Part shown: positions 23,005-58,774 of the stretch, one piece after another | Numbering within the stretch: position 1 is the stretch's first letter | Layout of the letters: each line of letters opens with the position of its first letter | Source: an uncultured Bacillota bacterium | Lineage (GTDB): Bacteria > Bacillota_I > Bacilli_A > RFN20 > CAG-826 | DNA length: 64,000 bases | Assembly (NCBI GenBank): GCA_949289845.1 | Contig: CASEPN010000001.1 | Location: 118,887 to 182,886 of the forward strand | Direction of reading: 5' to 3' | Notes under the pieces: model-generated | What the model was told of the DNA's origin: nothing | What the model saw: only the letters and a program-made list of their open reading frames with translations | Databases searched by the model: none | Position numbers and translations under genes: made by a program

Positions 23005-24309
23005 ATGATTGCGAAAGCGCGTCACATCGAGCTGCCCAACGTCCTCCTCGCCCATCAGGAACTGGAAGAGGCGCCTTTGCCAAAGTACTGCTACGTCGCA
23101 GGCACGAATGGCCGCTGCGCCTCCTATGAGCTCACGGTGAAGGAGGGGGACCATGTGAGGGTCGGGGAGCGCCTCGGCCTCCGGAAGGGACCCTTCTTCG
23201 AGCAGCCGATCGTATCCACCTGCTCCGGCACCTACCTCGGGATCGAGAAGCACCTCCACCACACGGGGAAGGAGTGCGAGTTCCTGAAGATCGAGAACGA
23301 CTTCAAGGACGAGCCGGATCCTTCCGCGAAGGAGAGGAGCGAGGAGGAGCTCAAGGCCCTGACGAAGGAGGATGTCCTCGCCATCATGCGGGACATGGCC
23401 CTCGTCGGCCTCGGCGGCTCTTCCTTCCCGAGCTACGTGAAGCTCCAGGGGGACCATCAGATCCACACCATCGTCATCAACGGGGTCGAGTGCGAGCCCT
23501 CGCTCGCGAGCGACCACCGCCTCATGCTCGAGCACCCCCACGAGATCATCGAGGGGCTCCGCCTCCTCATGAGGGCCACCGGCGCCAAGGAGGGGAAGAT
23601 CTGCGCGAAGTGGATCTACAAGGACCTCGCGGAATGCTGGTCGAGCGCCCTCGCCGGCGAGGAGGGCTCCGGCATCTCCTTCGCCCCGGTCTGGAACTTC
23701 TATCCCCAGGGATGGGAGGTCGCCTGCATCAAGACCGCGACCGGAATCGACATCCCGAGCGGCCATCTCCCTGCGGAGTTCGGGATCCTCGAGTACAACG
23801 TCGCCACCATCTACTCCCTCTACCTCGCCGCGAAGAAGAGGATGCCCCTCCTCACCCGCTACGTGCAGATCCACGGGGACGGGGTGAAGGAGCAGAAGTT
23901 CCTCAAGGCGAGGATCGGGACCCCTCTCAGGGACCTTCTCCCCCTCGCCGGAGGCTACACCGATTCCGGGAAGAAGAAGCGCATCATCATGGGCGGCCCC
24001 ATGATGGGGAACACCGTGGCAGATGACGACATCATCCTCACCCCCACCGTCACCTCCATCCTCGTGATGGACGAGGAGGTGTGGACCGCCGATAGCTGCG
24101 TCCGCTGCGGCTCCTGCGTCTACAGCTGCCCGACCCACCTCATGCCCGTCCTCATCGCCCAGGCGGTGAAGAGCGGGAACAAGGAGCGGGTCAAGGCGCT
24201 CCACCCCGAGCGCTGCGTCGAATGCGGGCTCTGCGCCTATAGCTGCACGAGCCGCATCAACGTCACCGAGTACGTAAGGAGGGCAAAGCGCATCGCGCGT
24301 CTTTCATGA
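23005..24309 (+). CDS. rnfC: Rnf electron transport complex subunit C
   Basis: 'VGLGGSSFPS' (NADH/FMN-binding region). Two 4Fe-4S motifs, 'CVRCGSCVYSCP' and 'CVECGLCAYSC'. Confidence 0.9.
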   Translation: MIAKARHIELPNVLLAHQELEEAPLPKYCYVAGTNGRCASYELTVKEGDHVRVGERLGLRKGPFFEQPIVSTCSGTYLGIEKHLHHTGKECEFLKIENDFKDEPDPSAKERSEEELKALTKEDVLAIMRDMALVGLGGSSFPSYVKLQGDHQIHTIVINGVECEPSLASDHRLMLEHPHEIIEGLRLLMRATGAKEGKICAKWIYKDLAECWSSALAGEEGSGISFAPVWNFYPQGWEVACIKTATGIDIPSGHLPAEFGILEYNVATIYSLYLAAKKRMPLLTRYVQIHGDGVKEQKFLKARIGTPLRDLLPLAGGYTDSGKKKRIIMGGPMMGNTVADDDIILTPTVTSILVMDEEVWTADSCVRCGSCVYSCPTHLMPVLIAQAVKSGNKERVKALHPERCVECGLCAYSCTSRINVTEYVRRAKRIARLS

Positions 24310-25448
24310 GCGAAGAGAACACCATGCGGCTCCTCCAGGAGCCAAGCCCGCACGTCCGGAGGAAGGACAGCGCCACGAGGATGATGCTTGACGTCCTCCT
24401 CGCCCTGCTCCCTCTCCTCATCTTCTCCTTCATCGTCTACCGCCTCGACGCCCTCAAGGTGTTCGGGATTGCGGTCCCGGCGATGATGATCGCCGAATGG
24501 GTTTTCGTCATGATCAAGGGACGGATGCCCTACGACGGGGAGAAGCATCCCTTCAAGGAGAAGTTCCTCCACGCCCTGAAGCTATACCGCCCGGTGAACG
24601 CCGTGGCCCCCGCCGTCTCTGCCCTCATCTTCGGGATGTGCCTCCCGCCCAGCACGAGCTGGTGGGGCGTCCTCGTCGGGGCGCTCGCCGGCATCATCTT
24701 CGGGAAGCTCCTCTTCGGGGGCCTCGGGCAGAACATCTTCAACCCCGCCGCCGTGGGCATGATCCTCACGCGTCTCAGCTTCTCCAACACGATGAGCTAC
24801 CCCGCCATCCCTTGGGGCGAGGGCACGATGGTCGACGTCGTCACCGGGGGCACCGTCCTTTCCGGCACAATCCAGGGCGGCTACTCCTCCCTCATGGACG
24901 TCTCCCTCCTCGACCTCTTCCTGGGCAGGACCCAGGGGGCGATGGGAGAAGTCTGCAAGGTCCTCATCCTCGTCGGGCTCCTCTATCTCCTGCTTCGCCA
25001 GGCGATCGACTGGCGGGTGACCTTCACCTATATCGGCGCCTTCACCGCCCTCATCGCCATCGCCGGCATCGCCATCGCCGGGGGCGGCATCGTCAAGGAC
25101 TTCGACATCTGGCACTTCATCGGGGTCGAGTTCCTCGCGGGAGGCATGCTCTTCGGGGCGACCTTCATGCTGACCGACCCGGTCACGATGCCGGCGACGA
25201 AGCCGGGGCGCTACATCTACGCCCTCTCCGCCGCCTCCCTCACCGTCCTCATCCGTCTCTTCGCCTCCGCTCCCGAGGGGGTCGGCTACTCGATCCTCCT
25301 CGCCAATCTCATCACGCCGGTCCTCGACCACCACAAGGTGGCCTCGTCCCGGTGGACGTGGAAGAAGTGGCTGACCATCGGCCTCATCCTCCTCGCCGAC
25401 ATCCTCTTCATCGTCATCGGAATCATCTTCGGAGGTAAAGTCAAATGA
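24306..25448 (+). CDS. rnfD: Rnf complex subunit D (NqrB/RnfD family)
   Basis: Polytopic. 'FMLTDPVTMPATKPG' carries the conserved Thr used for covalent FMN. ATGA coupling. Confidence 0.9.
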   Translation: MSEENTMRLLQEPSPHVRRKDSATRMMLDVLLALLPLLIFSFIVYRLDALKVFGIAVPAMMIAEWVFVMIKGRMPYDGEKHPFKEKFLHALKLYRPVNAVAPAVSALIFGMCLPPSTSWWGVLVGALAGIIFGKLLFGGLGQNIFNPAAVGMILTRLSFSNTMSYPAIPWGEGTMVDVVTGGTVLSGTIQGGYSSLMDVSLLDLFLGRTQGAMGEVCKVLILVGLLYLLLRQAIDWRVTFTYIGAFTALIAIAGIAIAGGGIVKDFDIWHFIGVEFLAGGMLFGATFMLTDPVTMPATKPGRYIYALSAASLTVLIRLFASAPEGVGYSILLANLITPVLDHHKVASSRWTWKKWLTIGLILLADILFIVIGIIFGGKVK

Positions 25449-28400
25449 AGATCAAGCTCGACGCAAAGCACGTTCTCTCGGTCGTCGCCGTCCTCGCCCT
25501 CATCGGCGGCGGGGCGGGCGCCCTCATCGGGACGGTGAACTACTTCACCAGCCCTGTCATCAGCGAGAATGACGACAAGAAGGAGAACGAGGCCTACTAC
25601 AAGTGCTTTCCGGACGCGGCCTCCTTCAGCGATGAGACCGAGGTCTCCAGCGGCACTTACATCGAGACGTACAAGAGCGCCCTCGACGCCTCCGGGAACG
25701 AGATCGGCAAGGTGTACCATGCGGTGGGCGCGACCGGCTTCGGCGCGAACGTCGACCTCCTGATTGGCGTCGACGCTGACGGGCTCGCCCACATCGAGAT
25801 CGTCGCCTACGGCCCGGATAACACCGGAGGCAACAACAAGACCGTAGAGGATTGGATCGACTCCATCAACGACGGGAGCGAGACGATCGACGGGGGCACC
25901 ACCACCGGGGCGACCAACACCGCCTCTGTCGTGAGGGCGATGGTCGCCGAGGCCCTCGATCTCTATGAGAACGGCGACGTGACGCCCCCGCCCGTTACCG
26001 GCGGCGAGAAGTACTACAACCTCTTCGAAGGCGGCGCCTCCGCAGGGGACAAGGTGAGCGTTGCCTCTGGAAGCCTCGACCACTACCGCGAGGTGAAGGA
26101 TGCCTCAGGGAACATCCTTGGACGCGCCTACTACGGCGGCGGGCTCAACGTCTTCGGCGTCAGCATCAACGTCATCGTCGGCGTCACCCCCGAGGGGGAG
26201 GTCACGAAGCTCTACCTCGACGCGTACTCGGGCGGCGAGCAGATGGGGACCGACACCACGATCAAGAACTGGATCGACGAGGTCAACAGCGGTGACAGGG
26301 AGTGGACCGCCGGTCCTAGCGCAGGCGCCTCCTATGAGGTTATCAAGGGCGTCATCGACGAGGCTATCGCGCACTATACCTCCGCTGCCCCTGCGCCGAC
26401 CTACGAGGAGTCCGTCTACCTCGGCCTCTTTGAGGGCGCGAGCTCTATCGGCGCCTTCCGCGAGCTGGGCGGGAACTACCTCACAGGGCGCGTGGATGTC
26501 CTGGACGCGGACGGGGAAGTCCTCGGCTACGCCTATGAGGGCGAGGGCAAGAACAGCTACAACGTCCACATTGCCCTCGTCGTCGGCGTGAAGACGGACG
26601 GGACTGTGACGAAGCTCTACCTCGGCGACTACTCTGGTGGGAACCCTGCGGGCACCGAGACGAGCGTCAATGAATGGATCGACAAGGTCAACGACGGCAC
26701 CGGCTCCATCGAGGCCGGCCCGAGCGCGACCTATTCCTACCAGGTCATCAAGGGCATCATCGACGAGGCCGTCGGCTACGCGACCGGCGCCATCGTCGAC
26801 CCGAGTGAGAACTACCTCGAGCTCTTCGAGGGGGCCTCTTCCCTTGGCGAGGAAGTCGAGCTGACCGGCGACTACGAGTACATCGCCTCCTATCGCGAGG
26901 TGAAGGGCAGCTCTGGCGCGGTGCTCGGAAGAGGCTACATCACGAACACCACGAACGTCGGGGATAGGTGGGGCAACCTCCAGCTTCTCATCGGCGTATA
27001 TCCCGACGGCACCATCTCCAAGGTCATCGCCCTTACCGACGAACAGAGCCGCCCGGACGGGACGAACGAGTACATCGAATCCGTGAATGGCGGCGGCGAC
27101 TACGAGGATATCTTCGGCTACGAGGCCTCGAGCGGAACCGTCGGAATTGAGATAACCCATGACGCGATTGCCGAGGCGATCGGGGACTACACCGGCGTGG
27201 CGAACCTCCCTGCCGAAATCACGAAGGCCATGGCGAGCATTCTTCCTGATGCCGCCGGCTGGGGCCAACCCACTGTCGTCAACGAGGGCTACATCATCGG
27301 AAGGATGCCCGTCCTTGACGAGGACGGCGTCGAGACGGGCGCTTCCTACTATCTCTCGGGCGCCGCGAGCGACGGGGAATATGATCTCGTAATCCTCGTC
27401 AAGGAGGATGGGTCCTTCACCCTTAGCCTAGTGAGCGGCGACTGGGACAGCGCCTACCTCGCCGGTGTCGAGGCGTGGATCGCCAAGATCAACGACGGGA
27501 GCGCCCACTACCGTGACGACATCAAGGACTCGGGCGTCAACCAGGCGGCTTATGCGATCGCCGCCAACATCGAGGCGGTCCTCGCCTACGAAACGGAAAC
27601 CACCGAGTCTCCCTACCTCGCCCTTTGGGACGGTTCCTATTCCGTGAGCTCCTCCCAGGCCGTCGAAGGCGGGACCTACCTCCACTCCTACCGCGAGGTG
27701 CGGGACGGCGCCGGGAAGGTCCTCGGAAGGGGCTACCTCACCAAGGTGACCTCCGTCCCGAGCAGTCGCGGGAGCTATGGGGATATCCAGGCCCTCATCG
27801 CGGTCAACAAAGACGGCACCATCAAGGAGGTGACGCTTCTTCAGAACACCCAGTCCATCCCCGGTTCCACCGACGAGTACGCCGGGTTCGTCAATGGCGG
27901 CGGGAACTACGAGGAGGTGCCTGAATATAGCGGCGGCACCATCGGCGTCGACATCCTCAAGGACATGATCGGGGAGGCGCTTACCCACTACGAGCAGAAC
28001 CCCGATCAGGTCGTCGATCCTGCCGAGCCCGTCGTTCCGACCAACATCCCCGAGGCCGTGAAGGCGCTCATCCCGGAGGCCCACTCCTGGAACGCCTTCG
28101 TTGAGCTTTCCGCCGTCTGGCAGGCGACCGGCTACTGGAGCGCCCTTGATGAAAGCGAGGCCGAGATCGGCCGCGTCTACGAGTTCAAGGCCGGGAGCAC
28201 GGGCGATGACAACCTCTACTACGTCGCTCTCGACGAAGACGCCGAGATCATCCAGCTCGAGGTCGTGAATACGACGCTCGAGGGCGAGAACCTGACCGCC
28301 CTCACCACATGGGTCGAGCAGCTGAACACGGGCAAGGCCATCCCGGAGATTCCTTCGGATAGCCCCATCGCCTCCGAGCTCGGATGGGTCGAGTCCGGGA

Positions 28401-28789
28401 TCGAGGACGCCCAGGCCGACTACCTTGGCGACGTCCCCGCCGCGGTGGAGGAGAAGGTCGCTTCCTTCGTCACGGAGAGCTTCGGCGAGAACGCCAAGTT
28501 CGACATGCCTTCCTCTGTCTCCAACGAGGACATCCCCGAGGTCACCAACCGCTATAACGTCTACGTTCCTTCGGACGATCCGACGGGCGGGACCCCGACC
28601 TACCCGGGCGACGTCTGGCTCGCCCATGTCAAGACCGATTCCTATGACGCCTACGTCCTCATCGCCGTCGGCGACCTCATCACGGACGACGTCGACACGG
28701 ATGCGGCCCGCTACCTCGTATGCTCCGAGGAGGGGACCAGGGACACGGAAGCCATCGACGCAGTCGTGGAGGCGCTCCTCGCGCTCTAG
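25445..28789 (+). CDS. rnfG: Rnf complex subunit G, hugely expanded: N-terminal TM anchor plus about 8 tandem FMN-binding-domain-like repeats (1114 aa)
   Basis: N-terminal 'VLSVVAVLALIGGGAGALIG' anchor as in RnfG. Repeat 1, 'DASGNEIGKVYHAVGATGFGANVDLLIGVDADGLAHIEIVAYGPDNTGGN..IDGGTTTGATNTASVVRAM', aligns to canonical RnfG/FMN_bind 'GYGG.I.LLVGID.DGKI.GV.IL.H.ETPGLG....DAITGATITSRAV'. Seven further units of about 130 aa have the same pattern (e.g. 'NVIVGVTPEGEVTKLYL', 'ALVVGVKTDGTVTKLYL', 'LLIGVYPDGTISKVIAL', 'ALIAVNKDGTIKEVTLL') with variant flavinylation motifs (SAGAS, SAT, SSGT, SGGT). Confidence 0.8.
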   Translation: MKIKLDAKHVLSVVAVLALIGGGAGALIGTVNYFTSPVISENDDKKENEAYYKCFPDAASFSDETEVSSGTYIETYKSALDASGNEIGKVYHAVGATGFGANVDLLIGVDADGLAHIEIVAYGPDNTGGNNKTVEDWIDSINDGSETIDGGTTTGATNTASVVRAMVAEALDLYENGDVTPPPVTGGEKYYNLFEGGASAGDKVSVASGSLDHYREVKDASGNILGRAYYGGGLNVFGVSINVIVGVTPEGEVTKLYLDAYSGGEQMGTDTTIKNWIDEVNSGDREWTAGPSAGASYEVIKGVIDEAIAHYTSAAPAPTYEESVYLGLFEGASSIGAFRELGGNYLTGRVDVLDADGEVLGYAYEGEGKNSYNVHIALVVGVKTDGTVTKLYLGDYSGGNPAGTETSVNEWIDKVNDGTGSIEAGPSATYSYQVIKGIIDEAVGYATGAIVDPSENYLELFEGASSLGEEVELTGDYEYIASYREVKGSSGAVLGRGYITNTTNVGDRWGNLQLLIGVYPDGTISKVIALTDEQSRPDGTNEYIESVNGGGDYEDIFGYEASSGTVGIEITHDAIAEAIGDYTGVANLPAEITKAMASILPDAAGWGQPTVVNEGYIIGRMPVLDEDGVETGASYYLSGAASDGEYDLVILVKEDGSFTLSLVSGDWDSAYLAGVEAWIAKINDGSAHYRDDIKDSGVNQAAYAIAANIEAVLAYETETTESPYLALWDGSYSVSSSQAVEGGTYLHSYREVRDGAGKVLGRGYLTKVTSVPSSRGSYGDIQALIAVNKDGTIKEVTLLQNTQSIPGSTDEYAGFVNGGGNYEEVPEYSGGTIGVDILKDMIGEALTHYEQNPDQVVDPAEPVVPTNIPEAVKALIPEAHSWNAFVELSAVWQATGYWSALDESEAEIGRVYEFKAGSTGDDNLYYVALDEDAEIIQLEVVNTTLEGENLTALTTWVEQLNTGKAIPEIPSDSPIASELGWVESGIEDAQADYLGDVPAAVEEKVASFVTESFGENAKFDMPSSVSNEDIPEVTNRYNVYVPSDDPTGGTPTYPGDVWLAHVKTDSYDAYVLIAVGDLITDDVDTDAARYLVCSEEGTRDTEAIDAVVEALLAL

Positions 28790-28792: not shown

Positions 28793-29518
28793 ATGGCGGA
28801 CAAGGCCATCGACATGCGGGGAGAGAGGAAGGAGGCCTTCGTCTCCGGAATCTGGAAGGCCAACCCCCTCTTCGTCTCCCTCCTGGGCTTCTGCCCGGCC
28901 CTCGCCGTCACGACCTCCTTCGAGAGCGCCTTCGGGATGGCGATCCTCTTCACCTTGGTGCTCCTGGGGTCGAACGTCTGCGTCTCGCTCCTCCGGAAGC
29001 TCATCCCGGAAGAGATCACGACGCCCTGCTACATCGTCATCATCGCCACCTTCGTCACGGTGGTGAAGATGCTCTGCGAGGCCTTCCTCCCGGAGCTATA
29101 CACCTCGCTCGGCGTCTTCCTCTCCCTCCTCGTCGTGAACTGCATCGTGCTCGGGAGGAGCGAGGCCTACGCCTCGAAGAACACGGTGCTCAACAGCACC
29201 CTCGACGCCCTCGGGAACGGCATCGGCTTCGGCTGGGCCATCTGCCTCATCGCCCTGGTGAGGGAGGTCCTCGGGACGGGGCAGCTCACCTTCGGGAAGG
29301 TGTTCACCTTCATCCCGGAGTACTCGCTCCCGCTCCTGAAGGTCGACGGGGTCTACGACCTCTCCATCGAGTTCTTCCAGCGTTCGATCGGGGGCTTCCT
29401 CGTGCTGGGGATCGCCCTTGCTATCATCGCCGCGATCGACATCCATAAGAAGGACAAGGCGAGGGTGGACGCCCTCCTCGCCAAGAAGAGGGCCGCGGCC
29501 CAGGAAGGAGCGAACTAG
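28793..29518 (+). CDS. rnfE: Rnf complex subunit E
   Basis: NqrD/RnfE family: 'NPLFVSLLGFCPALAVTTS', 'LGNGIGFG'. Confidence 0.9.
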   Translation: MADKAIDMRGERKEAFVSGIWKANPLFVSLLGFCPALAVTTSFESAFGMAILFTLVLLGSNVCVSLLRKLIPEEITTPCYIVIIATFVTVVKMLCEAFLPELYTSLGVFLSLLVVNCIVLGRSEAYASKNTVLNSTLDALGNGIGFGWAICLIALVREVLGTGQLTFGKVFTFIPEYSLPLLKVDGVYDLSIEFFQRSIGGFLVLGIALAIIAAIDIHKKDKARVDALLAKKRAAAQEGAN

Positions 29519-29521: not shown

Positions 29522-30106
29522 ATGGAATACATCGTCGCCTTCCTCCTCGCCGTATTGACGAGCTCCCTCATCGACAATGTCGTCCTCGCCCGCTTCTACG
29601 GGATCTGCAGCTTCCTCGGGACCGGGAACAAGGTCAAGCCGGCCTTTTCGATGGGGCTTGCGGTGACCTTCGTCATCGTGCTGGCGAGCCTCGTCTGCTG
29701 GCCCCTTTATAACTACGTCCTCGTCCCGGCGAAGATGGAGTTCCTCGACACCATCGTCTACATCCTCGTCATCGCCTCCCTCGTGCAGCTGGTCGGGATC
29801 TTCGTCAAGAAGACCTCGCCCGCCCTCTACAAGGGACTGGGGATCTACCTCCCCCTCATCACCACCAACTGCGCGGTCCTCGGGGTCGCCCAGGGGAACA
29901 CCGACCAGGGGCTCGACTTCCTGAGCTCGATGGGGAACGCGATCGGGACCTCGCTCGGCTACCTCCTCGTGATCGTCCTCTTCGCCCTCATCCGCGAGAG
30001 GCTGGAGAGCGCCGAGACCCCCCGCGCCCTCAAGGGCATCCCCATCGCGATGGTGACCGCCGCCCTCATGGCGCTCGCCTTCATGGGGCTCCAGGGCATC
30101 GCCTAG
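29522..30106 (+). CDS. rnfA: Rnf complex subunit A
   Basis: NqrE/RnfA family: 'NVVLARFYGICSFLG', 'ITTNCAVLGVA'. Confidence 0.9.
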   Translation: MEYIVAFLLAVLTSSLIDNVVLARFYGICSFLGTGNKVKPAFSMGLAVTFVIVLASLVCWPLYNYVLVPAKMEFLDTIVYILVIASLVQLVGIFVKKTSPALYKGLGIYLPLITTNCAVLGVAQGNTDQGLDFLSSMGNAIGTSLGYLLVIVLFALIRERLESAETPRALKGIPIAMVTAALMALAFMGLQGIA

Positions 30107-30322
30107 ATGGACGAGGCCACGGCCAGGGGCCTGGCGATCGCCCTCGTCGTCCTCCTCGCCCTCCTCTTCCTCGGGAGCTTCGTCTGGTACATGAGGACGA
30201 AGCCTCCCAAGGGATGCGAGAGGGTGCGGAAGGACGAGACGGACTGCATCGGCTGCAAGAACGCCGGCTGCCGGCTCTACCGGCCCAAGGAAAATCCCCC
30301 CGAAGAGGGGAAGAAGGAGTGA
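30107..30322 (+). CDS. mini RnfB-like protein: TM anchor plus partial Fe-S (RnfB N-domain-like) motif
   Basis: 'GCERVRKDETDCIGCKNAGC' has 4 Cys with the C-x2-C-x4-C spacing of the RnfB N-terminal Fe-S domain. 71 aa. Confidence 0.45.
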   Translation: MDEATARGLAIALVVLLALLFLGSFVWYMRTKPPKGCERVRKDETDCIGCKNAGCRLYRPKENPPEEGKKE

Positions 30323-30325
30323 GAC

Positions 30326-30673
30326 ATGGACATGAGCCTGCTGGACATGGCCTTCGACAACGGGATGGCGATCCTTTATAGCTTCCTGGTGCTTCTCGCC
30401 CTCGGGGCGATCTTCGCCTTCCTCCTCTGTCTCTTCAGCGTCGTCTTCAAGGTGAAGGAGGACAAGAGGGTAGGGGTGGTGAGGAAGCTCCTCCCCGGGA
30501 TCGACTGCGGGGCATGCGGGAACGCGGGCTGCCAGGAGATGGCGGAGAAGCTCGTCTCGGGCGAAGTCAAGGACCCCGCCCTCTGCCGCCCGGGGAAGAA
30601 GGAGAAGAACTTCGACCCCATCCTCGCCTATCTCAAGGAACACCCCGAGCCCATATACGAGGACGAGGAGTGA
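30326..30673 (+). CDS. rnfB: RnfB N-terminal Fe-S domain protein (truncated RnfB lacking ferredoxin domains)
   Basis: 'LLPGIDCGACGNAGCQEMAEKLVSGEVKDPALCRPGKKE' aligns closely to E. coli RnfB '[38 protein letters not shown]'. An N-terminal TM helix is present and no C-terminal 2x[4Fe-4S] ferredoxin domain is present. Confidence 0.65.
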   Translation: MDMSLLDMAFDNGMAILYSFLVLLALGAIFAFLLCLFSVVFKVKEDKRVGVVRKLLPGIDCGACGNAGCQEMAEKLVSGEVKDPALCRPGKKEKNFDPILAYLKEHPEPIYEDEE

Positions 30674-30763
30674 GCAAGAGGCCTTCCGGAAGGGAGGCCT
30701 TTTCCTTCGCCTTTTCCTCCCTATTCCCGCCCTCCGTTGAGAAACAGACGGGGAGAAACTAGA

Positions 30764-31873
30764 ATGCGCCCCATGAAGAAATGGCTTCCTTTCCTTTTCT
30801 TGCCCCTGCTCCTTGCTTCCTGCGGTTCTCCTGAGGGAGCCTCGGGATCCTTGTCCGGGGACGAGGCTTCGTCCGGGAACGGGGCGACGATCGTCCCGAG
30901 CGGGGACTTCGAGCTCGTCCGCTACCAGGACTTCCTTTCCTTCGGCGCCTATAGCGACCTCCGCTTCTACCAAAGGGAAGGGGAGGATCATGTCGCCCTT
31001 TTCGAAAGCCTCGTGGAGGTATTCGAGCTTCTTTCCCATTACATGGAGACGGACCTTCCCTATGCGGATGTCTCGGGGAAGACGACCGCGAAGACCTTGA
31101 GCGAGGAAGAGGGGGCCTTTCCTCTCGACGAGACGATGGCGGGACTCCTTTCCTTCGCGATCGACGCCCGTTCGATCACCGGAGGCTCGATCGACATCCT
31201 TTCCGGCGGGCTCAACGACCTCTGGAAGGATTCCTATTTGCTGAACAAGGAGGACCCCGTCCTCCCGAGCCAAGCGGACATCTCCCGCGAAATCGCGAGG
31301 ATATCCTCCTCCTCGCTTTCCCTCGCCAAGGATTGGGACGGCTCCTATGAGGTCGAGAAGACAGGAAACGCCCTCCTCGACTTCGGCTCGATGGGGAAGG
31401 GCTACGCGGTGGCGCGCCTCGGGGAGGCGCTCCGCGAGGAAGGGATCGGCTATTTCCTTCTGAACGCCGGGACGAGCTCGATCCTCATCGGGCAGAACCC
31501 CAACAGCGAGGACGGGACCTTCAAGATCGGCTTCTCCGACATCGAAGGAGTCACCTTCCAGGCGAAGGACGTGGCGATCGGCACCTCGAGCGTGACGAAC
31601 CAGCACCGCGTGGACGAGGCCACCGGAACCCTCTATAGCCACGTGATCGACCCCAAGACAGGGAGCGCGGTGCCTTCCCTGACCACCGCGATCGTGATCG
31701 GGGAGGACGCCGGGATGTGCGACGTCTTCTCGACATGGCTCCTCATGAAAGGGGAGGAGGCCGATGTCGGGCTCATCGAAAGCATGGGCTACTCGGTCCT
31801 TCTTTACGACTACCGGAGGGCGACTCCCTTCGTCCACCTGAGCGAGTCCTTCCCCCCGCTGGAAGGGAAGTAG
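30764..31873 (+). CDS. apbE: FAD:protein FMN transferase ApbE, lipoprotein (extracytosolic)
   Basis: Signal peptide with lipobox 'LLLASCGS'. ApbE signature 'DFGSMGKGYAVARLGEAL' and a 'DPKTG' region. Confidence 0.85.
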   Translation: MRPMKKWLPFLFLPLLLASCGSPEGASGSLSGDEASSGNGATIVPSGDFELVRYQDFLSFGAYSDLRFYQREGEDHVALFESLVEVFELLSHYMETDLPYADVSGKTTAKTLSEEEGAFPLDETMAGLLSFAIDARSITGGSIDILSGGLNDLWKDSYLLNKEDPVLPSQADISREIARISSSSLSLAKDWDGSYEVEKTGNALLDFGSMGKGYAVARLGEALREEGIGYFLLNAGTSSILIGQNPNSEDGTFKIGFSDIEGVTFQAKDVAIGTSSVTNQHRVDEATGTLYSHVIDPKTGSAVPSLTTAIVIGEDAGMCDVFSTWLLMKGEEADVGLIESMGYSVLLYDYRRATPFVHLSESFPPLEGK

Positions 31874-32341
31874 ATGGCCTTCCGGGAGAATGTCCGCCGC
31901 CACCTTGGGGACATCCTCCTTTTCCTCGTCCTCTTCCTCGGGCTTCTCGTCGGGACGATCCTCGCCTTCCTCCTCCCGGGCGAGAAGGCCTCTGAGGCCC
32001 TCTTCTACCGGGACGACGCCCTCCTCCTCCGGATCGATCTCGTCCATCCCGAGAAGTCCGTTCCCTACGAGGACACGGAGAAGATCGAAGATCCCTCCTC
32101 CTACGGGGAAGAGGTCATCCTCGCCTACATCATCCAGGGGGAAATGACCCCGATGACCGTCGCCCTTTCCGCGGAAGGGGTTGCCGTCCTCGAGTCGGGG
32201 TGCCCCTCACAGTACTGCGTCGGCCTCGGCTACACGATGGACGTGAGGCGTCCGATCGTCTGCGCCTATAACCACGTCCACGTCGAGTACCAAGGAGCGG
32301 CCGCGGAGGATTCCTCTTCCGGGCCGGACATCATCCTATGA
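31874..32341 (+). CDS. small membrane-anchored protein, possibly NusG-domain-II-like (flavinylation-cluster associated)
   Basis: N-terminal TM 'ILLFLVLFLGLLVGTILAFLL' plus a roughly 110-aa soluble beta-rich domain. Family assignment is from recollection of ApbE-associated clusters and was not verified. Overlaps the next gene (ATGA). Confidence 0.35.
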   Translation: MAFRENVRRHLGDILLFLVLFLGLLVGTILAFLLPGEKASEALFYRDDALLLRIDLVHPEKSVPYEDTEKIEDPSSYGEEVILAYIIQGEMTPMTVALSAEGVAVLESGCPSQYCVGLGYTMDVRRPIVCAYNHVHVEYQGAAAEDSSSGPDIIL

Positions 32342-32862
32342 GAGGCACGGTAAGGAGGATGGCGGCCGACGCGGCGATGCTCGCCCTCGCCCTCGCCCTT
32401 TCGATCGCCGAGAGCTTCATCCCCATATCCGCGGTCCCGGGCTTCAAGCCGGGGCTCGCGAACATCGTGATCCTCCTCCTCATATACCAGTTCTCGTGGA
32501 AGGAGGCGCTCATCGTCGACCTCGGGAGGATTTTCCTCGCCTCCCTCATGACAGGGAGGATCCTCAGCTTCCCCTTCTACATGTCCCTTGCCGGAGGGGT
32601 CCTTTCCTATCTCGGGATGGTCCTGGTGAAGTCCCTCCTTTCGAAGGTATTCACCATATACGGGGCCTCCCTCCTCGGGGCCTTCCTCCATTCCCTGGGC
32701 CAGATCCTAGTCGCGATCCCCCTTCTGGGCACTTCCGCGGTCCTTTGGTACTTCCCCCTCATGGGCCTCACGAGCCTTCTCACGGGCCTAGCGACGGGCT
32801 TCCTCGCGGACAGGATCATCAAGACGAGGGTGTTCGAGTTCCTGAGGATCACGGGAAGATAG
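32338..32862 (+). CDS. Gx-transporter-family membrane protein (PF07456, mis-named 'heptaprenyl diphosphate synthase component I'-like)
   Basis: 'AMLALALALSIAESFIPISAVPGFKPGLANIVILLLIY' resembles the conserved N-terminus of this family. 4-5 TM, 174 aa. Confidence 0.45.
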   Translation: MRGTVRRMAADAAMLALALALSIAESFIPISAVPGFKPGLANIVILLLIYQFSWKEALIVDLGRIFLASLMTGRILSFPFYMSLAGGVLSYLGMVLVKSLLSKVFTIYGASLLGAFLHSLGQILVAIPLLGTSAVLWYFPLMGLTSLLTGLATGFLADRIIKTRVFEFLRITGR

Positions 32863-34857: not shown

Positions 34858-34945
34858 CGGTAAATCGGTAAATCCCTTGGTCGATACTTGATTTCGCTTG
34901 ACTTATCCCAATAATACGTGCCCGAAAGAAGGGATAGAAAACACA
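34858..34945 (+). promoter_or_regulatory. AT-rich promoter region with direct repeat cggtaaat-cggtaaat and a TTGATT-N17-ATAATA sigma70-like promoter
   Basis: 'ccggtaaatcggtaaat' (34858-34873), then 'ttgatt'-17 nt-'ataata' ahead of RBS 'agaaggga' and the ATG at 34946. The 13-mer ggtaaatcggtaa recurs in reverse complement upstream of the LacI gene (19782-19794). Confidence 0.35.
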
Positions 34946-35851
34946 ATGAAGAAACCCATTCTCCTGACCGCCGCGATCGCGGCCGCCACCCTCCTCGCCT
35001 CCTGCGGCGACGGATCCACCTGCAGCTCCTGCCCCGCCGGGAGCGAGGGCGCCAACATCACCCCGATCACCTTCGCGCAGCAGTGCGAGGCCGAGGGCAT
35101 CGACTTCACCTACGAGGACCCGAACGCGGCCTACTACATCCCCGAGGCGCTCCCGAGCAACACCGACGACATCGACCTCGAGCTCGGCGGCTCCACCGAT
35201 GCCGCCGGCAATCCGGCTGACAACGAGAGCGAGACCTCCTCTTCTTACTACACCATCGACTACGCGATGAGCAGGCTCACCACCTACTGGACGACCTACA
35301 CTTGGGCCGAGGCCGCCGCGGACGACACCGCGACCGCCTCCACCATCGCCGAGGCCGCTGCGCTCGAGAATGCCAAGTACGTCACCGATCTCTTCCCGAA
35401 CGATGGCAAGGAGTACGTCATCGAGTCCCAGAGGGGCTGGCCCTATGCCGCCGTCTCCTACTCCACCGTCGACGAGGACGGCACCCCCCGCGTCTCCACC
35501 GCCATCCCTGGCGCCAGGAAGGGCGAGGACGGCATCTGGAGGATGACCGGCTACATCACCATGAAGGACATGGTCTACAACATGGTCCGCACCGGCGAGG
35601 CCATGGCGCTCCTCTATGAGTGGCACCCCGAGGCCAGCGCCTGCTACGGCGGCCGCCTTGCCCTCGAGGTCGACTTCGACGCCACCTACGCCAGCGTCCC
35701 GGCCACGGAAGAGGGCGGCTCCCCGACCCAGGTCAAGCTCACCAAGGGCATGACCAAGGAAGAGCTCCCCGCCAACGCCAGCTACGTCGTCTTCAGCCTC
35801 AAGGTGACCCACCTCTACTCGATGGGCTACGCCAACGACTGGACGAAGTAA
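34946..35851 (+). CDS. hypothetical lipoprotein
   Basis: 'MKKPILLTAAIAAATLLASCGDG' signal peptide with lipobox. Acidic and Thr/Tyr-rich. Confidence 0.5.
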   Translation: MKKPILLTAAIAAATLLASCGDGSTCSSCPAGSEGANITPITFAQQCEAEGIDFTYEDPNAAYYIPEALPSNTDDIDLELGGSTDAAGNPADNESETSSSYYTIDYAMSRLTTYWTTYTWAEAAADDTATASTIAEAAALENAKYVTDLFPNDGKEYVIESQRGWPYAAVSYSTVDEDGTPRVSTAIPGARKGEDGIWRMTGYITMKDMVYNMVRTGEAMALLYEWHPEASACYGGRLALEVDFDATYASVPATEEGGSPTQVKLTKGMTKEELPANASYVVFSLKVTHLYSMGYANDWTK

Positions 35852-36071: not shown

Positions 36072-36147
36072 CGGGGCATTAGCTCAGCGGTAGAGCACCT
36101 GCTTTGCAAGCAGGGGGTCGGGGGTTCGAGACCCCTATGCTCCACCA
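36072..36147 (+). tRNA. tRNA-Ala (anticodon TGC)
   Basis: Cloverleaf with 7-bp acceptor stem including the G3:U70 Ala identity pair. Anticodon loop 'tttgcaa'. T-arm 'gggggttcgagacccc'. CCA encoded. Confidence 0.9.
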
Positions 36148-36164
36148 GGAAGATGCCCGCGGAT

Positions 36165-36241
36165 GGCTGAGTAGCCCAGCTGGTCAGAGCGATCGGTTCA
36201 TACCCGACAGGTCGGGGGTTCAAGTCCCTCCTCAGCCACCA
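36165..36241 (+). tRNA. tRNA-Met (anticodon CAT), elongator type (G1:C72)
   Basis: Acceptor 'ggctgag/ctcagcc'. D-arm 'tagcccagctggtcagagc' like E. coli tRNA-Met(m). Anticodon loop 'ttcatac'. CCA encoded. Confidence 0.8.
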
Positions 36242-36336
36242 TCGAGATAGGGAGCCCGGAAGGGCTCTTTTCCGTTCCAGGGAAAAGGAGGGAAAGGCTT
36301 GCAAGAAGCCTTCCCAAGCGCTTAACTTCCCCCGCC

Positions 36337-36412
36337 GGACCATTAGCGCAGCGGTTAGCGCGGGCCCCTTATAAGAGCTAGGTCGCAGGTTCAAATCCTG
36401 CATGGTCCACCA
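36337..36412 (+). tRNA. tRNA-Ile-like with anticodon TAT (UAU)
   Basis: Perfect acceptor 'ggaccat/atggtcc'. Anticodon loop 'cttataa' (34-36 = TAT). The body ('ttagcgcagcggttagcgc', 'aggtcgcaggttcaaatcctgc') closely resembles bacterial tRNA-Ile2, with CAT replaced by TAT. CCA encoded. Confidence 0.7.
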
Positions 36413-36490: not shown

Positions 36491-38026
36491 ATGAGAAAAG
36501 CATGGTCCCTCCTCCTTCCTCTTCTCGCCCTTTCCTCCTGCGTCCCCGAAGGGACGACGGGGGATTCTTCCTCGACGAAGGAGGAGCCTTCCTCTAGTTC
36601 CTCGGAAGAGATCGAGGGGGGTTTCTGGATCGAAGGCCCTTCCTTGCTCGACATCGGGGAACGGGGGCGCTACGAGCTCATGGGGGACGTCCCCGAGGGC
36701 GAGATCCATTGGGAAGTCGAGGGCGAGAGCCTCGTCGAGCCCTATGAGTACCCCAACCCCCTCTACTACGGCCTCACGGGGCTATATGAGGGAGAGGTCG
36801 TCCTCAAGGCGATGTTAGGGGACAAGGTCCTCTTCCCTTTCGAGATCGAGGTGAAGGACGTCGACTCGGGCTTCCTCGTGGACGCGGGGACCGGGAAGCT
36901 CGCGCTCGGAGGGAAGATGGAGCTTTCCTTCTCGCTTGATGGGGAGCCCCTTCCTGCGAAGGAACTCTCCTCCGTCTCGATCACGACGCTTTCCTCGCCT
37001 TCGGGGAAGGGGCTCGTCTCCTCCTATGAGGACGAAGGCCTCTTCCTACTCGGGGAGGAGCTCGGGAGCTTCCGCGCGGTCGCTTCCTACGAGGGCCTTC
37101 TCTCCAACCCCTTCGAGATCGAGGTGATTCCTTCCGTCGAGGGGAAGACGTACCTCCTGGAGGTGCTTCTTGAAGACGGGACGCCCGCGGAAGAGAACAC
37201 CATCCCGACCTCTTCCACGGTCACCTTCGTCCTCCGGGACGAGGAAGGGGAGGACTATCCCTTCCAGTGGGGCGTGGAGCTCCTCGAAGGGGACTCCTGG
37301 GTCCTCCAGGAGACAGAGGATCCCCATGTCTACGAGACCTACATCTGGTCCGAGGAGAGGCTCCTAATCGCTCCTGCCTTCCCCGGGGAAGCGCCCGCGC
37401 TCGCGGCGGAGGCCCTCGAACTATACGTGATGCACGAAGGGGACACCCCTCTTCTGGACTTCCATCTCGAGGATGAGGCTGGGAACGAGGTCGAGACGCT
37501 CTTCGTCAGCCCTGACGGGAGCACGAGGCTCCATATCGTCCCGGAGCGAGAGACGGACTACCTCGGCACCGCGAACGTCCACTGCGAGGACGAGAGGCTC
37601 AACCCCGGCCAGGAATGGGGCGAGGAGGGAGGGCGCTACCTCATCTTCGCCCCCGAGGAGGGAGGGAGCTACTCCCTTCTCGTCAGGTTCACGTTCGTGA
37701 AGAAGGAGTTCCCGGTCCACGTTATGCCGGAGGAGGCCGCCCTCGAGCTTGAGATCATGGGGACGGGCACGATGGACGGGGAGAAGTACTACGTCGGACA
37801 TACGGGCTCGATCACGGGAGGGTTCCCTTGGGAGGGGCCCATCTACTGCGACCTCGTCGACTACGACGTCGAGTACGTCTTCCTTGAGGGCGAGGACCTC
37901 GTCCGCATCGGGGAGGGACGGGACATTCATTTCCTTTCCCCTGGCACGGTGAGCCTATATGCGCAGATCAGGAACACCGAGGTCAAGAGCAACACCTTCG
38001 CCTTCGAGATCGAGCCCGAGGAATAG
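36491..38026 (+). CDS. acidic secreted lipoprotein, hypothetical (Ig-like repeats likely)
   Basis: 'LLLPLLALSSCVPEG' lipobox. Glu-rich, beta-rich repeats. Confidence 0.5.
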   Translation: MRKAWSLLLPLLALSSCVPEGTTGDSSSTKEEPSSSSSEEIEGGFWIEGPSLLDIGERGRYELMGDVPEGEIHWEVEGESLVEPYEYPNPLYYGLTGLYEGEVVLKAMLGDKVLFPFEIEVKDVDSGFLVDAGTGKLALGGKMELSFSLDGEPLPAKELSSVSITTLSSPSGKGLVSSYEDEGLFLLGEELGSFRAVASYEGLLSNPFEIEVIPSVEGKTYLLEVLLEDGTPAEENTIPTSSTVTFVLRDEEGEDYPFQWGVELLEGDSWVLQETEDPHVYETYIWSEERLLIAPAFPGEAPALAAEALELYVMHEGDTPLLDFHLEDEAGNEVETLFVSPDGSTRLHIVPERETDYLGTANVHCEDERLNPGQEWGEEGGRYLIFAPEEGGSYSLLVRFTFVKKEFPVHVMPEEAALELEIMGTGTMDGEKYYVGHTGSITGGFPWEGPIYCDLVDYDVEYVFLEGEDLVRIGEGRDIHFLSPGTVSLYAQIRNTEVKSNTFAFEIEPEE

Positions 38027-38070: not shown

Positions 38071-40326
38071 ATGAGAAGACCGTTCCTTGCCCTTTTCCTA
38101 TCTCTCTTCCTTCTTGCCTCCTGCGAGGAGCAGGGGGATCCCCTCGTGCCCCCCGAGCCCGCGGACGAGTTCTCCTTCGTCACCGAGGGCGGCGTCCTCG
38201 ACATCGGGGAGACAAGGGAGATCTTCTTTTTTCCCCGGAACGGGGCGAAGCCTACCTTCGAGATCGAGGGAAAGGGGGCGAGGATCCTCGACGTCGGGGA
38301 GGACTCCCTCCTCGTCCAGGGGATTGCGGAAGGGGGCTTCCTCCTGGAGGAGGCGAATAGCGGCGTCTCCCTTTCCCTATCGGTCGAGGACTTGTGGAGC
38401 GGATACTACCTCGAGGCGGACGCCATCTCCCTCATGGAAGGGGAGCGGGCCTCCCTCGCCCTCCATGGCCCCGGGGACGAGCTCCTTCCCTTGGAAGAGG
38501 GCATGCTCCGCCTTCTCCCCGGGAGCGCAGAGGCCTCCTTCCCCCTGGACGAGTTCGGGACCCCATCCCTCCAGGCGGACGGGACCGGGGAGATCCTCCT
38601 TTTCGCCGAGATGGAGGACGGGTCCGTCACGGACGTCCTTTCGATAAAAAGCACCATGTTCCTTGAGCCTCTCTATCTTTCCCTTGAAGGAGGGAACGGC
38701 GACTTCCGCCCCGGGGAGAAAAGGGAGCTCTCCCTCATGGACCGCTGGGGCGATCCTTATGAAGGGGACTGGGAGCCGACCATCAGGAACCTCGACATGT
38801 TTTCCACGCCTTTCGCCTTGGAAGGAAAGGAAATATCCGCGCTTTCCTCTGGGGAATGCGAGGTTTCCGCGAAAGTTGAGGAGGATGGATACGAAGTCCA
38901 GCCCCTCCGTCTCCTCTCCGCGGAGGAAGGGGAGAAGCGCCCCTACGAGCTCCGCCTCGTGAACGCCTATAACGAAAGCGACTGGGACGAGGACGGGCTC
39001 TGGATGAACCTCCAGGACGGGTATGGCTACGGCTTCTCTCTCTGGACGGACGTGGACGGCCCCAAGGGCTCGATCCAGGTCGAGTGTCTCGCCGGGGATC
39101 CCGAGGCCGTCCTTTTCGAAGTGGAAGAGGACTTCGGCTCCGGGCATATGGCCGATTGCTCCGTCCGTCCCATCAAGGAAGGCTCGGCGACCTACCGCGT
39201 GCGGATCGGGAGCCTATATAGCGAGGAGTACACCTTCCATGCGCTTCCTGGATGGAACTCCCGTCCTTCCCTTTCCCTGGAGGACGATGAGATCCCGGTG
39301 GGAGGGAAGACGAGGCTCCTCCCTTCCGTGGAAGGATCGGAAGGCGAGTACCTCTTCGACTATGTGGTCGTGGACGGGGAAGGGACCGCGAAGCTTCTCG
39401 AGGGCGGGGTCCTCGCCGGGGAGCGGGTCGGCTCGATGACCATCCAGGTGCGCCTCAGGGGAGAGCGCGGGCTTTGGGGCGAGTCGGTCGTCCTCGACGT
39501 AACGGAGGAAGGGAGCGGCGACCCCTACGTCGGGATGAGCCCGGAGGAGTTCTACCGGGACTACGAGCAGGCGGAGACGCTCCTGGACAGCTACTACCGC
39601 ACGAGGCACGGCTTCCTCTCGGGCTCGCTCGAGGTCCCGGGCCAGTACGCGGAGCTTTCCGAGGACCGCCCCATGGAGGACGGGCTATACGTCAAGAACA
39701 CATCCCTTTCCTTCTCCGAGGGCGGGTCCGCCTATACGGTGAGGGATAGCCAGGGGAACGAGTCGTTCACCATCTTCGAGGGCGGGGGCTACATCACCCT
39801 CGAGGAGGTCGCCGCCTATCTCTTCGCCTTCGGGGACGTCCCTGCCAACTATTGGGAGGACCGCTACGACTACCCTTCCCCTTCCTCAAGCGAGTGGGGC
39901 GAGTACCTCAGGCTCAACAACTCCTACTTCTCCGGGGACCAGGAGAGCTACCCTTACGAGCCCGCCCTTCCGGATATCTCCGGGATCGAAGGCGGGAGGA
40001 GCGACTACTATGAGGTCGACGTCGGGACGACGGGGACCTATACGGGTCCCTCCTTTCCCGTGAGGCCCTATAACGACGGCTACTCGATCACCCGCGGAGG
40101 GGCGAGGCTCGTCTACATGCGCTATACGGACGGGGAGGAAAGCCAGGCTCCCGCCCGGAAGGTGTTCTACACCTGGAACCACTACAACGACTTCCGCGAG
40201 TACCTGAACTACGAAGGGGGCTGGGGCGAGGCCTTCGGGAACGTGACCGCGGGGGGCGAGGTCGACGTCGTCGCCCCGGGAGGGCCGTCCCCTTACGTTC
40301 CAGTGGCGGAGAAGGGTCTTTTCTAA
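38071..40326 (+). CDS. secreted lipoprotein with C-terminal barnase/RNase-Sa-family ribonuclease domain
   Basis: Lipobox 'LLASCEEQ'. The C-terminal segment 'YYEVDVG..RGGARLVYMRYTDG..VFYTWNHYNDF' aligns to barnase 'TWREADINY..GFRNSDRILYSSD..IYKTTDHYQTF' with catalytic Glu, Arg, Arg and His conserved. The preceding 'ITLEEVAAYLFAFGDVPANYWEDR' matches barnase 'VADYLQTYHKLPDNYITKSE'. Confidence 0.6.
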   Translation: MRRPFLALFLSLFLLASCEEQGDPLVPPEPADEFSFVTEGGVLDIGETREIFFFPRNGAKPTFEIEGKGARILDVGEDSLLVQGIAEGGFLLEEANSGVSLSLSVEDLWSGYYLEADAISLMEGERASLALHGPGDELLPLEEGMLRLLPGSAEASFPLDEFGTPSLQADGTGEILLFAEMEDGSVTDVLSIKSTMFLEPLYLSLEGGNGDFRPGEKRELSLMDRWGDPYEGDWEPTIRNLDMFSTPFALEGKEISALSSGECEVSAKVEEDGYEVQPLRLLSAEEGEKRPYELRLVNAYNESDWDEDGLWMNLQDGYGYGFSLWTDVDGPKGSIQVECLAGDPEAVLFEVEEDFGSGHMADCSVRPIKEGSATYRVRIGSLYSEEYTFHALPGWNSRPSLSLEDDEIPVGGKTRLLPSVEGSEGEYLFDYVVVDGEGTAKLLEGGVLAGERVGSMTIQVRLRGERGLWGESVVLDVTEEGSGDPYVGMSPEEFYRDYEQAETLLDSYYRTRHGFLSGSLEVPGQYAELSEDRPMEDGLYVKNTSLSFSEGGSAYTVRDSQGNESFTIFEGGGYITLEEVAAYLFAFGDVPANYWEDRYDYPSPSSSEWGEYLRLNNSYFSGDQESYPYEPALPDISGIEGGRSDYYEVDVGTTGTYTGPSFPVRPYNDGYSITRGGARLVYMRYTDGEESQAPARKVFYTWNHYNDFREYLNYEGGWGEAFGNVTAGGEVDVVAPGGPSPYVPVAEKGLF

Positions 40327-40384
40327 ACAAGATTAATCCTCGATTTCTTGGCCCGTTCCAGCGGAATAGCCTTATCATTCGCCT

Positions 40385-43120: not shown

Positions 43121-43309
43121 ATTTGCTGTCGTTCTGCATAGTTATCGCAGGCTGATTTACCATTCTCTCCATAGTTTCCGGCATAGGAGTGATCTTCCTG
43201 TCTCATTGAGGGAGGCACGAAACGGACGGGGTTTGTTGGCTTTTCGCCCAATATCCTGAATTTCCTGCATTTTCCCGGGAAATAACCTTTCCCATCGACT
43301 ACAATTCCC

Positions 43310-45732: not shown

Positions 45733-45823
45733 GGAGGCATACCCAAGCGGCTGAAGGGGCCGGTCTTGAAAACCGGAAGCGGGTCTTTGCCCGGCGGGAG
45801 TTCGAATCTCCCTGCCTCCGCCA
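45733..45823 (+). tRNA. tRNA-Ser (anticodon TGA)
   Basis: Acceptor 'ggaggca/tgcctcc'. Anticodon loop 'cttgaaa'. Long variable arm 'aagcgggtctttgcccggc'. CCA encoded. TATAAT at 45718-45723. Confidence 0.9.
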
Positions 45824-50538: not shown

Positions 50539-50600
50539 GCTGGAGCCATTATATCGATGGCGGTGTAACTTCCGCAGTCATCTCGCTATATAGTGTCTCC

Positions 50601-50933: not shown

Positions 50934-50981
50934 CCTATTAGAGACATTGTTCGGGTTTCTTATTGTCTGCCAAGTCCAGCC

Positions 50982-51875: not shown

Positions 51876-51883
51876 AAGGGAAC

Positions 51884-54829: not shown

Positions 54830-54848
54830 TCCTAAGGAAGGGATCATC

Positions 54849-58771: not shown

Positions 58772-58774
58772 CCC

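Follow-up and report, generated by a model that had tools for sequence, protein, structure and literature searches.

How do electrons enter an Rnf complex whose RnfB lacks the domain that is thought to receive them from ferredoxin? This question is raised by a stretch of DNA from an uncultured Bacillota bacterium (64,000 nucleotides, hereafter the window) that carries an rnf operon in which the position of rnfB is occupied by two tandem small genes. Their products are small membrane-anchored proteins of 71 and 115 amino acids, as had been described in an earlier sequence-only reading of this DNA, and our analysis confirmed the coordinates and the strand of both genes. Here, we ask what each of the two proteins is, how widely the arrangement is distributed, and how such a complex may accept its electrons.

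The rnf operon

The rnf genes form a compact operon on the + strand, rnfCDGEA-ORF1-rnfB, which is followed by a hairpin and by the genes for an ApbE, a NusG_II and an Hpre_diP_synt_I protein (see Table 1); the 71-aa protein and its gene are referred to as ORF1. Apart from RnfB, the Rnf core is complete and intact. The rnfC product matches the Pfam families Complex1_51K, RnfC_N, SLBB and Fer4_7, and it is the sole carrier of CxxCxxCxxxC motifs among the proteins of the 64 kb window. RnfD has the flavinylation-type motif TGGT at residue 180. In the giant RnfG protein, TIGR01947 covers residues 16-119 and PF04205 residues 778-846, and a self-comparison places the starts of the repeats near residues 49, 188, 321, 455, 594, 735 and 870. 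The position of the apbE gene is shared with the loci L001, L002 and L085, and the synteny of the downstream NusG_II/Hpre_diP_synt_I pair is kept in the same three loci. The true start of the ApbE ORF is probably the ATG near 30763. With respect to RNA genes, the only Rfam matches in the window are five tRNAs.

Table 1. Features of the rnf operon and of the genes that follow it (positions in the window)
Feature	Position	Strand	Description and evidence
rnfC	23005..24309	+	NADH/FMN module with 2x[4Fe-4S], intact; TIGR01945, 311.6 bits vs cutoff 246
rnfD	24306..25448	+	PF03116, E 4e-76
rnfG, giant, 1114 aa	25445..28789	+	Membrane anchor and ~7 tandem FMN_bind-like modules of ~137 aa each
rnfE	28793..29518	+	PF02508, E 2e-56; NF009070, 227 bits vs cutoff 184
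rnfA	29522..30106	+	TIGR01943, 235.7 bits vs cutoff 229.3
ORF1, 71-aa single-pass membrane protein with Cys motif	30107..30322	+	Start codon directly after the rnfA stop
ORF1 transmembrane helix, ~residues 8-30, then basic RTKPPK	30128..30196	+	AF2
ORF1 Cys motif C37-x9-C47-x2-C50-x4-C55	30215..30271	+	Alignments A3, A4
rnfB, short, one-cluster, 115 aa	30326..30673	+	PF04060, no Fer4
RnfB transmembrane helix, ~residues 14-41	30365..30448	+	Aligned to the N-terminal helix of 9ERI_B, 7ZC6_B and 8AHX_B
PF04060 [4Fe-4S]-type domain, C61, C64, C69, C87	30491..30592	+	Pfam
RnfB C-terminal tail helix (NFDPILAYLKEHP)	30602..30646	+	Conserved in short RnfBs
Terminator-like hairpin with T-rich tail, 3' of rnfB	30683..30716	+	Consensus scan only
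ApbE-type flavin transferase, lipoprotein (LLASCG)	30737..31873	+	PF02424, E 2e-34
NusG_II-domain protein and Hpre_diP_synt_I-family membrane protein	31874..32862	+	PF07009, PF07456

Both small genes have the codon usage of their surroundings. The GC content of the genome is 61%, and the GC3 of real genes is about 0.9; it reaches 0.92 in ORF1 and 0.91 in the 115-aa ORF, the same as in the neighbouring rnf genes. For a comparison at the codon level, we used the 97%-identical MAG of an 'uncultured Firmicutes bacterium' (L003): ORF1 differs from its counterpart by five synonymous codons, one non-synonymous codon and an in-frame indel of two codons, and the short rnfB by 14 synonymous and five non-synonymous codons. 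ORF1 and the short rnfB are real coding genes under purifying selection.

A short, one-cluster RnfB

The second protein had been regarded as the N-terminal cysteine cluster region of RnfB, and this assignment held: Residues 56-89 match the Pfam family PF04060 'FeS' (E 1.9e-10), and the protein aligns to positions 1-80 of all NCBIfam RnfB models, always below the cutoffs for full-length proteins (46.0 bits vs a cutoff of 68.7 for TIGR01944; the scores for all PRK07118 variants are far below the cutoff). The search with the PF04060 profile, which had been proposed as a check, found the 115-aa protein and gave no match in ORF1. The C-terminal ferredoxin domains are indeed absent, as had been noticed: Pfam finds no Fer4 domain in the 115-aa protein, the CxxCxxCxxxC motif is absent too, and there is no relic of such a domain in the 64 kb window (see below).

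The part of the protein that has been retained is highly conserved. In the alignment A1, three of the cysteines (C61, C64, C69) show no variation, and the fourth one, C87, is conserved in at least 90% of the sequences. The C-terminal tail NFDPILAYLxEHP, with its invariant residues Y102, L103 and P107, is a feature of short RnfBs only and falls into a region that is unmatched by the solved RnfB chains. In the AF2 model (pLDDT 75), a helix of residues 3-40 is followed by a small domain and by a second helix of residues 93-105. The best structural match to this model in a Foldseek search was the N-terminal 4Fe-4S domain of the corrinoid iron-sulfur protein (probability 0.95-0.97 at weak E values of 0.2-0.4). 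This domain of the large subunit (2YCL, 4DJD) is itself a PF04060 domain; unlike the short RnfB, however, the 440-aa corrinoid protein is soluble, has no membrane anchor and belongs to the acetyl-CoA pathway. All 21 of the 21 close homologues of the short RnfB have a length of 98-126 aa and contain only PF04060, and an exact-sequence look-up found no record identical to the 115-aa protein of the window.

The canonical RnfB proteins of A. woodii (9ERI_B), C. tetanomorphum (7ZC6_B) and A. vinelandii (8AHX_B) are encoded at the same operon position, and their residues ~3-78 align to the short form (E 1e-12 to 6e-19); the profile of the short-RnfB family covers only this part of the three chains. 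Beyond it, the canonical proteins continue into a C-terminal domain, the presumed acceptor of electrons from ferredoxin, which houses 2-7 additional [4Fe-4S] clusters; the RnfB of the window has no such domain. According to a recent review, the small N-terminal domain of RnfB acts as a flexible shuttle from the C-terminal ferredoxin-like domain, which holds two to seven clusters, to the intramembrane [2Fe-2S] centre of RnfA/E (2025, PMC12174285). In the solved complexes, this centre lies between RnfA and RnfE and receives its electrons from the small domain. Of the features that define an RnfB, the window protein has the N-terminal transmembrane helix, the PF04060 pattern CxxCx4C...C and the location in an rnf operon by rnfA; it lacks the ferredoxin-like C-terminal domain with at least two clusters and does not reach the cutoff of the curated models. 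It is an intact RnfB that is made up of the membrane anchor, the small flexible domain with its four cysteines for an Fe-S cluster and, at the end, a short helix that is conserved.

Such a protein is neither degraded nor unusual, it belongs to an already known and biochemically validated type, that of T. maritima. The RnfB of this organism has a mass of 10.56 kDa and one predicted 4Fe-4S centre (Kuhns et al. 2020, PMC7414866). Kuhns et al. posed the question whether this RnfB would accept clostridial ferredoxin, and the purified T. maritima Rnf complex accepts the ferredoxin of C. pasteurianum, oxidises ferredoxin and transports Na+ (PMC7414866). As in the window, T. maritima rnfB is the last gene of the operon (rnfCDGEAB), and its product has only one cluster domain, of the PF04060 type, between the membrane anchor and a short tail; ferredoxin-like domains are absent. 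The window protein conforms to this type in its size (~10-13 kDa), its one predicted cluster and its short tail; it differs from the Thermotogota form by a longer N-terminus and by the clade-typical NFDPILAYLxEHP tail.

Distribution of the short RnfB

In a survey of 80 GTDB loci from species-representative genomes, 37 encoded a short and 43 a long RnfB, and the distribution of lengths was bimodal: One group of proteins measures 95-135 aa and lacks the CxxCxxCxxxC motif; the other has a length of 264 aa or more and contains it. The short form was found in Acholeplasmataceae, 'Tenericutes bacterium MO-XQ', Xianfuyuplasma, Anaeroplasma and Erysipelotrichaceae, as well as in Solobacterium, Bulleidia, Onthovivens and unnamed Bacilli. 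At all these loci, the short rnfB follows rnfCDGEA, and loci at 73% and at 43% identity have their genes in the identical order, with the small ORF upstream of rnfB.

A neighbour-joining tree of RnfA, calculated without bootstrap, places 35 of the 37 short-RnfB operons in one pure clade that comprises Acholeplasma, Izemoplasma, Anaeroplasma, Erysipelotrichaceae and their relatives. The remaining two, from a Thermotogota MAG (L037) and from a member of the Bacillota (L065), sit among the long-RnfB operons of this tree, which implies that truncation or transfer took place independently at least two more times. The Thermotogota locus encodes a short RnfB of the same type (~95 aa) and has no ORF1; since its operon lies outside the clade of the window, the truncation in Thermotogota is probably independent. 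The short RnfB is typical of this lineage, and it probably serves there as a minimal module for electron input.

A conserved small gene upstream of the short rnfB

ORF1 had been interpreted as a further-degraded duplicate of RnfB. Our work leads to another view: ORF1 is a separate conserved gene, and its family was previously undescribed and unannotated. No Pfam or NCBIfam family annotates the protein. If sequences are clustered at 50% identity, the family comprises 406 or more clusters, as an exhaustive profile search showed; 117 of them were retrieved at E<=1e-10, and the proteins have a length of 51-95 aa in all 150 matches listed. They share a common plan, i. e. one membrane helix, a basic stretch, usually the motif [KR]TPxP[KE]GCE, and an invariant CxxCx4-6C motif. 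P34 and the three cysteines C47, C50 and C55 are invariant in the alignments A3 and A4; four cysteines are present in 123 of 147 representatives, and CxxCx4C alone in 20 (~14%). Since the family is so conserved, the term 'degraded' is wrong for ORF1. The AF2 model contains a helix of residues 3-30 that is predicted as a block with pLDDT 87-97, and the cysteine region has a pLDDT below 50. By the positive-inside rule, the C-terminal cysteine motif would be cytoplasmic, on the same side of the membrane as the RnfB cluster. In the literature on RnfB in Acholeplasma, on truncated RnfB and on extra subunits (rnfX, rnfH), neither ORF1 nor the short RnfB of this clade is described.

The gene is strictly linked to the short rnfB. 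When the HMM of the ORF1 family was run over every ORF of 86 loci, members were detected at 29 of the 37 short-RnfB loci and at none of the 43 long-RnfB loci, and all matches were located directly upstream of a short rnfB and nowhere else; L001 and L002 have their homologues at this very position. Eight short-RnfB loci, the Thermotogota locus among them, have no ORF1, and six of these form one subclade of the RnfA tree, suggesting a single loss. Three further members of the family were looked up in their assemblies: In two cases, the gene abuts rnfA on one side and a short rnfB on the other, and in the third case, ORF1 is fused to RnfB and directly follows rnfA. This natural fusion, the 135-aa protein P0067, joins ORF1 to the soluble part of RnfB; its value as Rosetta-stone evidence was downgraded, as its scaffold (L083) contains an N-gap and a split rnfE.

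Is ORF1 a copy of RnfB? The profiles of the two families align with a probability of 93% in hhalign if the whole proteins are compared, and with 78% if only the membrane helices are used; for the soluble parts, the value falls to 12.7% over 11 columns. The likeness at the family level thus consists of the membrane helix and an 11-column match of CxxCx4C, and the idea of a duplicate was rejected. The 'NAGC' that ORF1 and RnfB have in common in the window is not conserved across the ORF1 family. Moreover, the fourth cysteine of ORF1 lies upstream of the CxxCx4C motif, whereas it lies downstream in PF04060; with no Pfam match and the low hhalign value of its soluble part, ORF1 does not qualify as a PF04060 protein. 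Common descent of ORF1 and RnfB is possible, judging by their sequences, but not demonstrable.

Two other families of small membrane proteins resemble ORF1 in their architecture. Like ORF1, the FeoB-associated proteins of PF12669 consist of a membrane helix and a short Cys-rich tail, and this is the only recurrent Pfam match of the ORF1 family (seven of 22 members, best E 0.0029, ~14-16 bits vs 27). ORF1 itself scores 13.8 bits against the gathering cutoff of 27, there is no feoB in the window, and ORF1 was not assigned to this family. The second one is NqrM (DUF539), the maturation factor of Na+-NQR, which similarly is a small single-pass Cys protein encoded in a pump operon near apbE; this likeness concerns the architecture only. 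NqrM goes together with NQR, a homologous pump that has no RnfB, whereas ORF1 occurs only with short-RnfB Rnf operons. No NqrM/DUF539 model was among the hits shown for the ORF1 family at E<=1 (22 members) or E<=10 (10 members), in searches whose sensitivity is limited by the HMMER filters. With matches that are either missing or below threshold, homology of ORF1 to NqrM or to the FeoB-associated proteins was rejected.

Electron input and the role of ORF1

We consider it quite probable, by analogy with the T. maritima enzyme, that the operon encodes a working ferredoxin:NAD+ Rnf complex with a minimal input module, in which ferredoxin would pass its electrons straight to the only cluster of RnfB; ORF1 would be a small protein specific to Rnf that binds a metal or an Fe-S centre. 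Soluble reduced ferredoxin would dock on, or beside, the single cluster of RnfB, and the electrons would pass from RnfB to the [2Fe-2S] centre of RnfA/E, the FMN of RnfG, RnfD, RnfC and finally NAD+, coupled to ion pumping, or they would take the reverse path. In this picture, ORF1 would be a membrane neighbour of RnfB and RnfA/E, with such a centre bound to it; it may serve as a second redox or docking element and partially substitute for the lost ferredoxin-like domain, or it may help to build the complex. Genes for ferredoxin, flavodoxin, PFOR or hydrogenases are not present in the 64 kb window; PFOR and ferredoxin-linked hydrogenases have been reported in genome papers on related lineages (Izemoplasmatales, RFN20/RF39). 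As Izemoplasma genomes have been reported to contain two Rnf complexes, a second rnf operon with a long RnfB is possible in the source genome.

ORF1 is probably either an extra small metal or Fe-S subunit of Rnf or an NqrM-like factor for assembly or maturation. Its exclusive association with the short RnfB and its placement abutting both rnfA and rnfB suggest the role of a subunit. It is tempting to speculate that ORF1 is a previously unrecognised seventh subunit of Rnf in which a cysteine knuckle, tethered to the membrane, binds a further Fe-S or metal centre. ORF1 and the one-cluster RnfB would then share the docking of ferredoxin as the two halves of a minimal module that is specific for the Acholeplasma/Izemoplasma/Erysipelotrichaceae radiation; in this full form, the proposal is a tentative one that we regard as rather doubtful. 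If T. maritima has no ORF1, as the Thermotogota locus suggests, the protein is dispensable for a working one-cluster RnfB.

Alternatively, ORF1 might be a maturation factor rather than a permanent subunit and deliver iron or Fe-S clusters to the [2Fe-2S] centre of RnfA/E or to RnfB during assembly, with NqrM as the model. Kostyrko et al. (2016) reportedly described NqrM as a protein with only one membrane helix, behind which conserved cysteines lie on the cytoplasmic side, and ORF1 has the same architecture. The apbE gene belongs to the same operon and is located two genes downstream of ORF1, some lineages manage without ORF1, and a chaperone would tolerate the variable spacing of the cysteines, and the loss of one of them in some members, more readily than a fixed redox centre would. 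On the other hand, the Pfam searches reported no similarity of ORF1 to NqrM/DUF539 even at E<=10, and ORF1 is missing from all of the long-RnfB operons, which nevertheless require the same [2Fe-2S] centre. Moreover, a gene that abuts rnfA and rnfB suggests stoichiometric co-production. A role in maturation is a possibility that we consider less likely than not.

The sequence-only reading had questioned the identity of the cytoplasmic electron donor and suggested a rewired complex. In such a complex, the RnfB branch would be idle or serve another partner, and the main electron flow would start at NADH, run through RnfC, RnfD and the multi-module RnfG, and end on acceptors outside the cell. The ~7 FMN_bind-like modules of RnfG fit this idea, as does the lack of a ferredoxin gene in the window, and for multi-flavinylated RnfG proteins, an additional electron path that leads to the outside has been proposed (PMC8238504). 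However, the T. maritima complex with its one-cluster RnfB has ferredoxin:NAD+ activity, takes up the electrons of clostridial ferredoxin and pumps Na+ (PMC7414866). This precedent indicates that ferredoxin can donate to a complex with a one-cluster RnfB, and no rewiring is needed. The strict conservation of the RnfB cluster ligands argues against an idle branch, and the canonical TGAT flavinylation motif is present in module 1 of RnfG only. Finally, the truncation had been tied to the expanded RnfG, and this connection did not stand up: The interval between rnfD and rnfE in short-RnfB loci ranges from ~0.5 kb, the ordinary size of rnfG, to more than 3 kb, and many relatives combine the short RnfB and ORF1 with an interval of only ~0.5-0.7 kb. 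At the other extreme, the rnfG gene of L002 has 4.6 kb and encodes an RnfG of 1543 aa, again together with a short RnfB and ORF1. The truncation of RnfB is thus independent of the expansion of RnfG, and a rewired complex is improbable.

That the two ORFs are a frameshifted, truncated or decayed full-length rnfB, with ORF1 as its functionless degraded duplicate, is extremely improbable: The similar motifs in the window ('DCIGCKNAGC' in ORF1 and 'DCGACGNAGC' in RnfB) and the high hhalign probability for the whole proteins would fit such a decay, but the two families are hardly alike in their soluble parts, synonymous differences exceed non-synonymous ones in both genes, and the order, the length and the cysteine positions of both genes are kept from 97% down to ~20-40% identity across hundreds of clusters. 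A frameshift or sequencing error, by which the sequence-only reading saw itself open to refutation, was not found either. In a tblastn comparison of more than 30 full-length RnfB proteins from other genomes with the six reading frames of the window, their residues 1-80 matched 30365-30607, and their Fer4 parts matched only the C-terminus of RnfC (24025-24330). As the matches are confined to these two regions, the 64 kb window contains neither a frameshift nor a relic of Fer4 nor another rnfB, and the interpretation as a relic of a long rnfB was ruled out. Only 63 nt separate the stop codon of the short rnfB from the ApbE ORF.

Implications

One-cluster RnfB proteins were already known; what is new is the pairing of the short RnfB with a conserved, unannotated Cys-rich membrane protein. 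The ORF1 family is a widespread family of unannotated small proteins with a strict genomic link to the short rnfB, and annotation pipelines probably miss its members or label them 'hypothetical'. NqrM has proved indispensable for the heterologous production of NQR. ORF1 is thus worth checking when the Rnf complex of these organisms is expressed or purified. The clade with the short RnfB demonstrates that, like T. maritima, a large group of bacteria from gut, rumen and sediment manages without the ferredoxin-accepting domain of RnfB. As these bacteria have no C-terminal domain, their complexes are a natural minimal system for locating the site at which ferredoxin docks on Rnf.

FMN_bind-like modules of RnfG and the flavinylation-type motif of RnfD

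The RnfG protein of the window is composed of about seven tandem modules that share 24-46% pairwise identity. The canonical flavinylation motif TGAT is present only in module 1; module 5 has TGAS and module 6 has SGGT. Across related loci, the size of the rnfG gene ranges from about 0.5 to 4.6 kb. RnfD also carries a flavinylation-type motif: around residue 180 we found VVTGGTVL, i.e. TGGT rather than the usual TGAT.

Table. Coordinates of features in the window and in the compared rnf locus L083
Feature	Coordinates	Properties
rnfD	window 24306-25448
rnfG	window 25445-28789	1114 aa; ~7 FMN_bind-like modules of ~137 aa each
ApbE lipoprotein, NusG_II-domain protein, Hpre_diP_synt_I-family membrane protein	window 30737-32862	3' of the rnf operon
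Three sizeable ORFs	window 34898-35851, 36491-38026, 38071-40326	no Pfam family; coding GC3
Five tRNA genes	window 36073-36409, 45733-45820, 51799-51872
Low-GC stretches	window 54000-60000, 40000-44000, 50000-52000	GC 0.53-0.58 (~0.63 elsewhere)
P0067	L083 5177-5584	135 aa

Apparent RnfB fusions and short RnfB proteins in other loci

P0067 begins with an N-terminus of the ORF1 type (membrane helix and Cys motif) and continues as the soluble portion of a short-type RnfB. This fusion may be an assembly artefact, since the L083 scaffold contains an N-gap and a split rnfE. Longer single ORFs (456-484 aa) that appear to be RnfA fused to full-length RnfB occur at three GTDB loci (L059, L064, L040; some Clostridia, Omnitrophota and Spirochaetales MAGs).

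Short RnfB proteins of 95-98 aa without ORF1 are encoded at two GTDB loci, L037 (a Thermotogota MAG) and L065 (a Bacillota MAG). The RnfA proteins of both cluster with operons encoding long RnfB, which points to independent truncations. The contigs L014 ("Sodaliphilus sp.") and L039 ("Methanomethylophilaceae archaeon") are assigned to bins with a Bacteroidota and an archaeal name, respectively, yet the rnf operon on each is of the Bacilli type and encodes ORF1 and a short RnfB; they are probably mis-binned.

Surroundings of the rnf operon

At least two of the three Pfam-less ORFs start with lipoprotein-like signals (…LLASCG, …LALSSCV). Three of the five tRNA genes form a cluster just 3' of the rnf region; beyond tRNAs, the window gave no Rfam hits, and it has no rRNA. 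ORFs with the high-GC3 signature of the genome are nearly absent from the low-GC stretches, which may therefore be foreign or non-coding segments.

The three genes for the ApbE lipoprotein, the NusG_II-domain protein and the Hpre_diP_synt_I-family membrane protein also follow the rnf operon in the distant relatives L001, L002 and L085, and this recurrence suggests that they constitute a conserved flavinylation or flavin-supply module.
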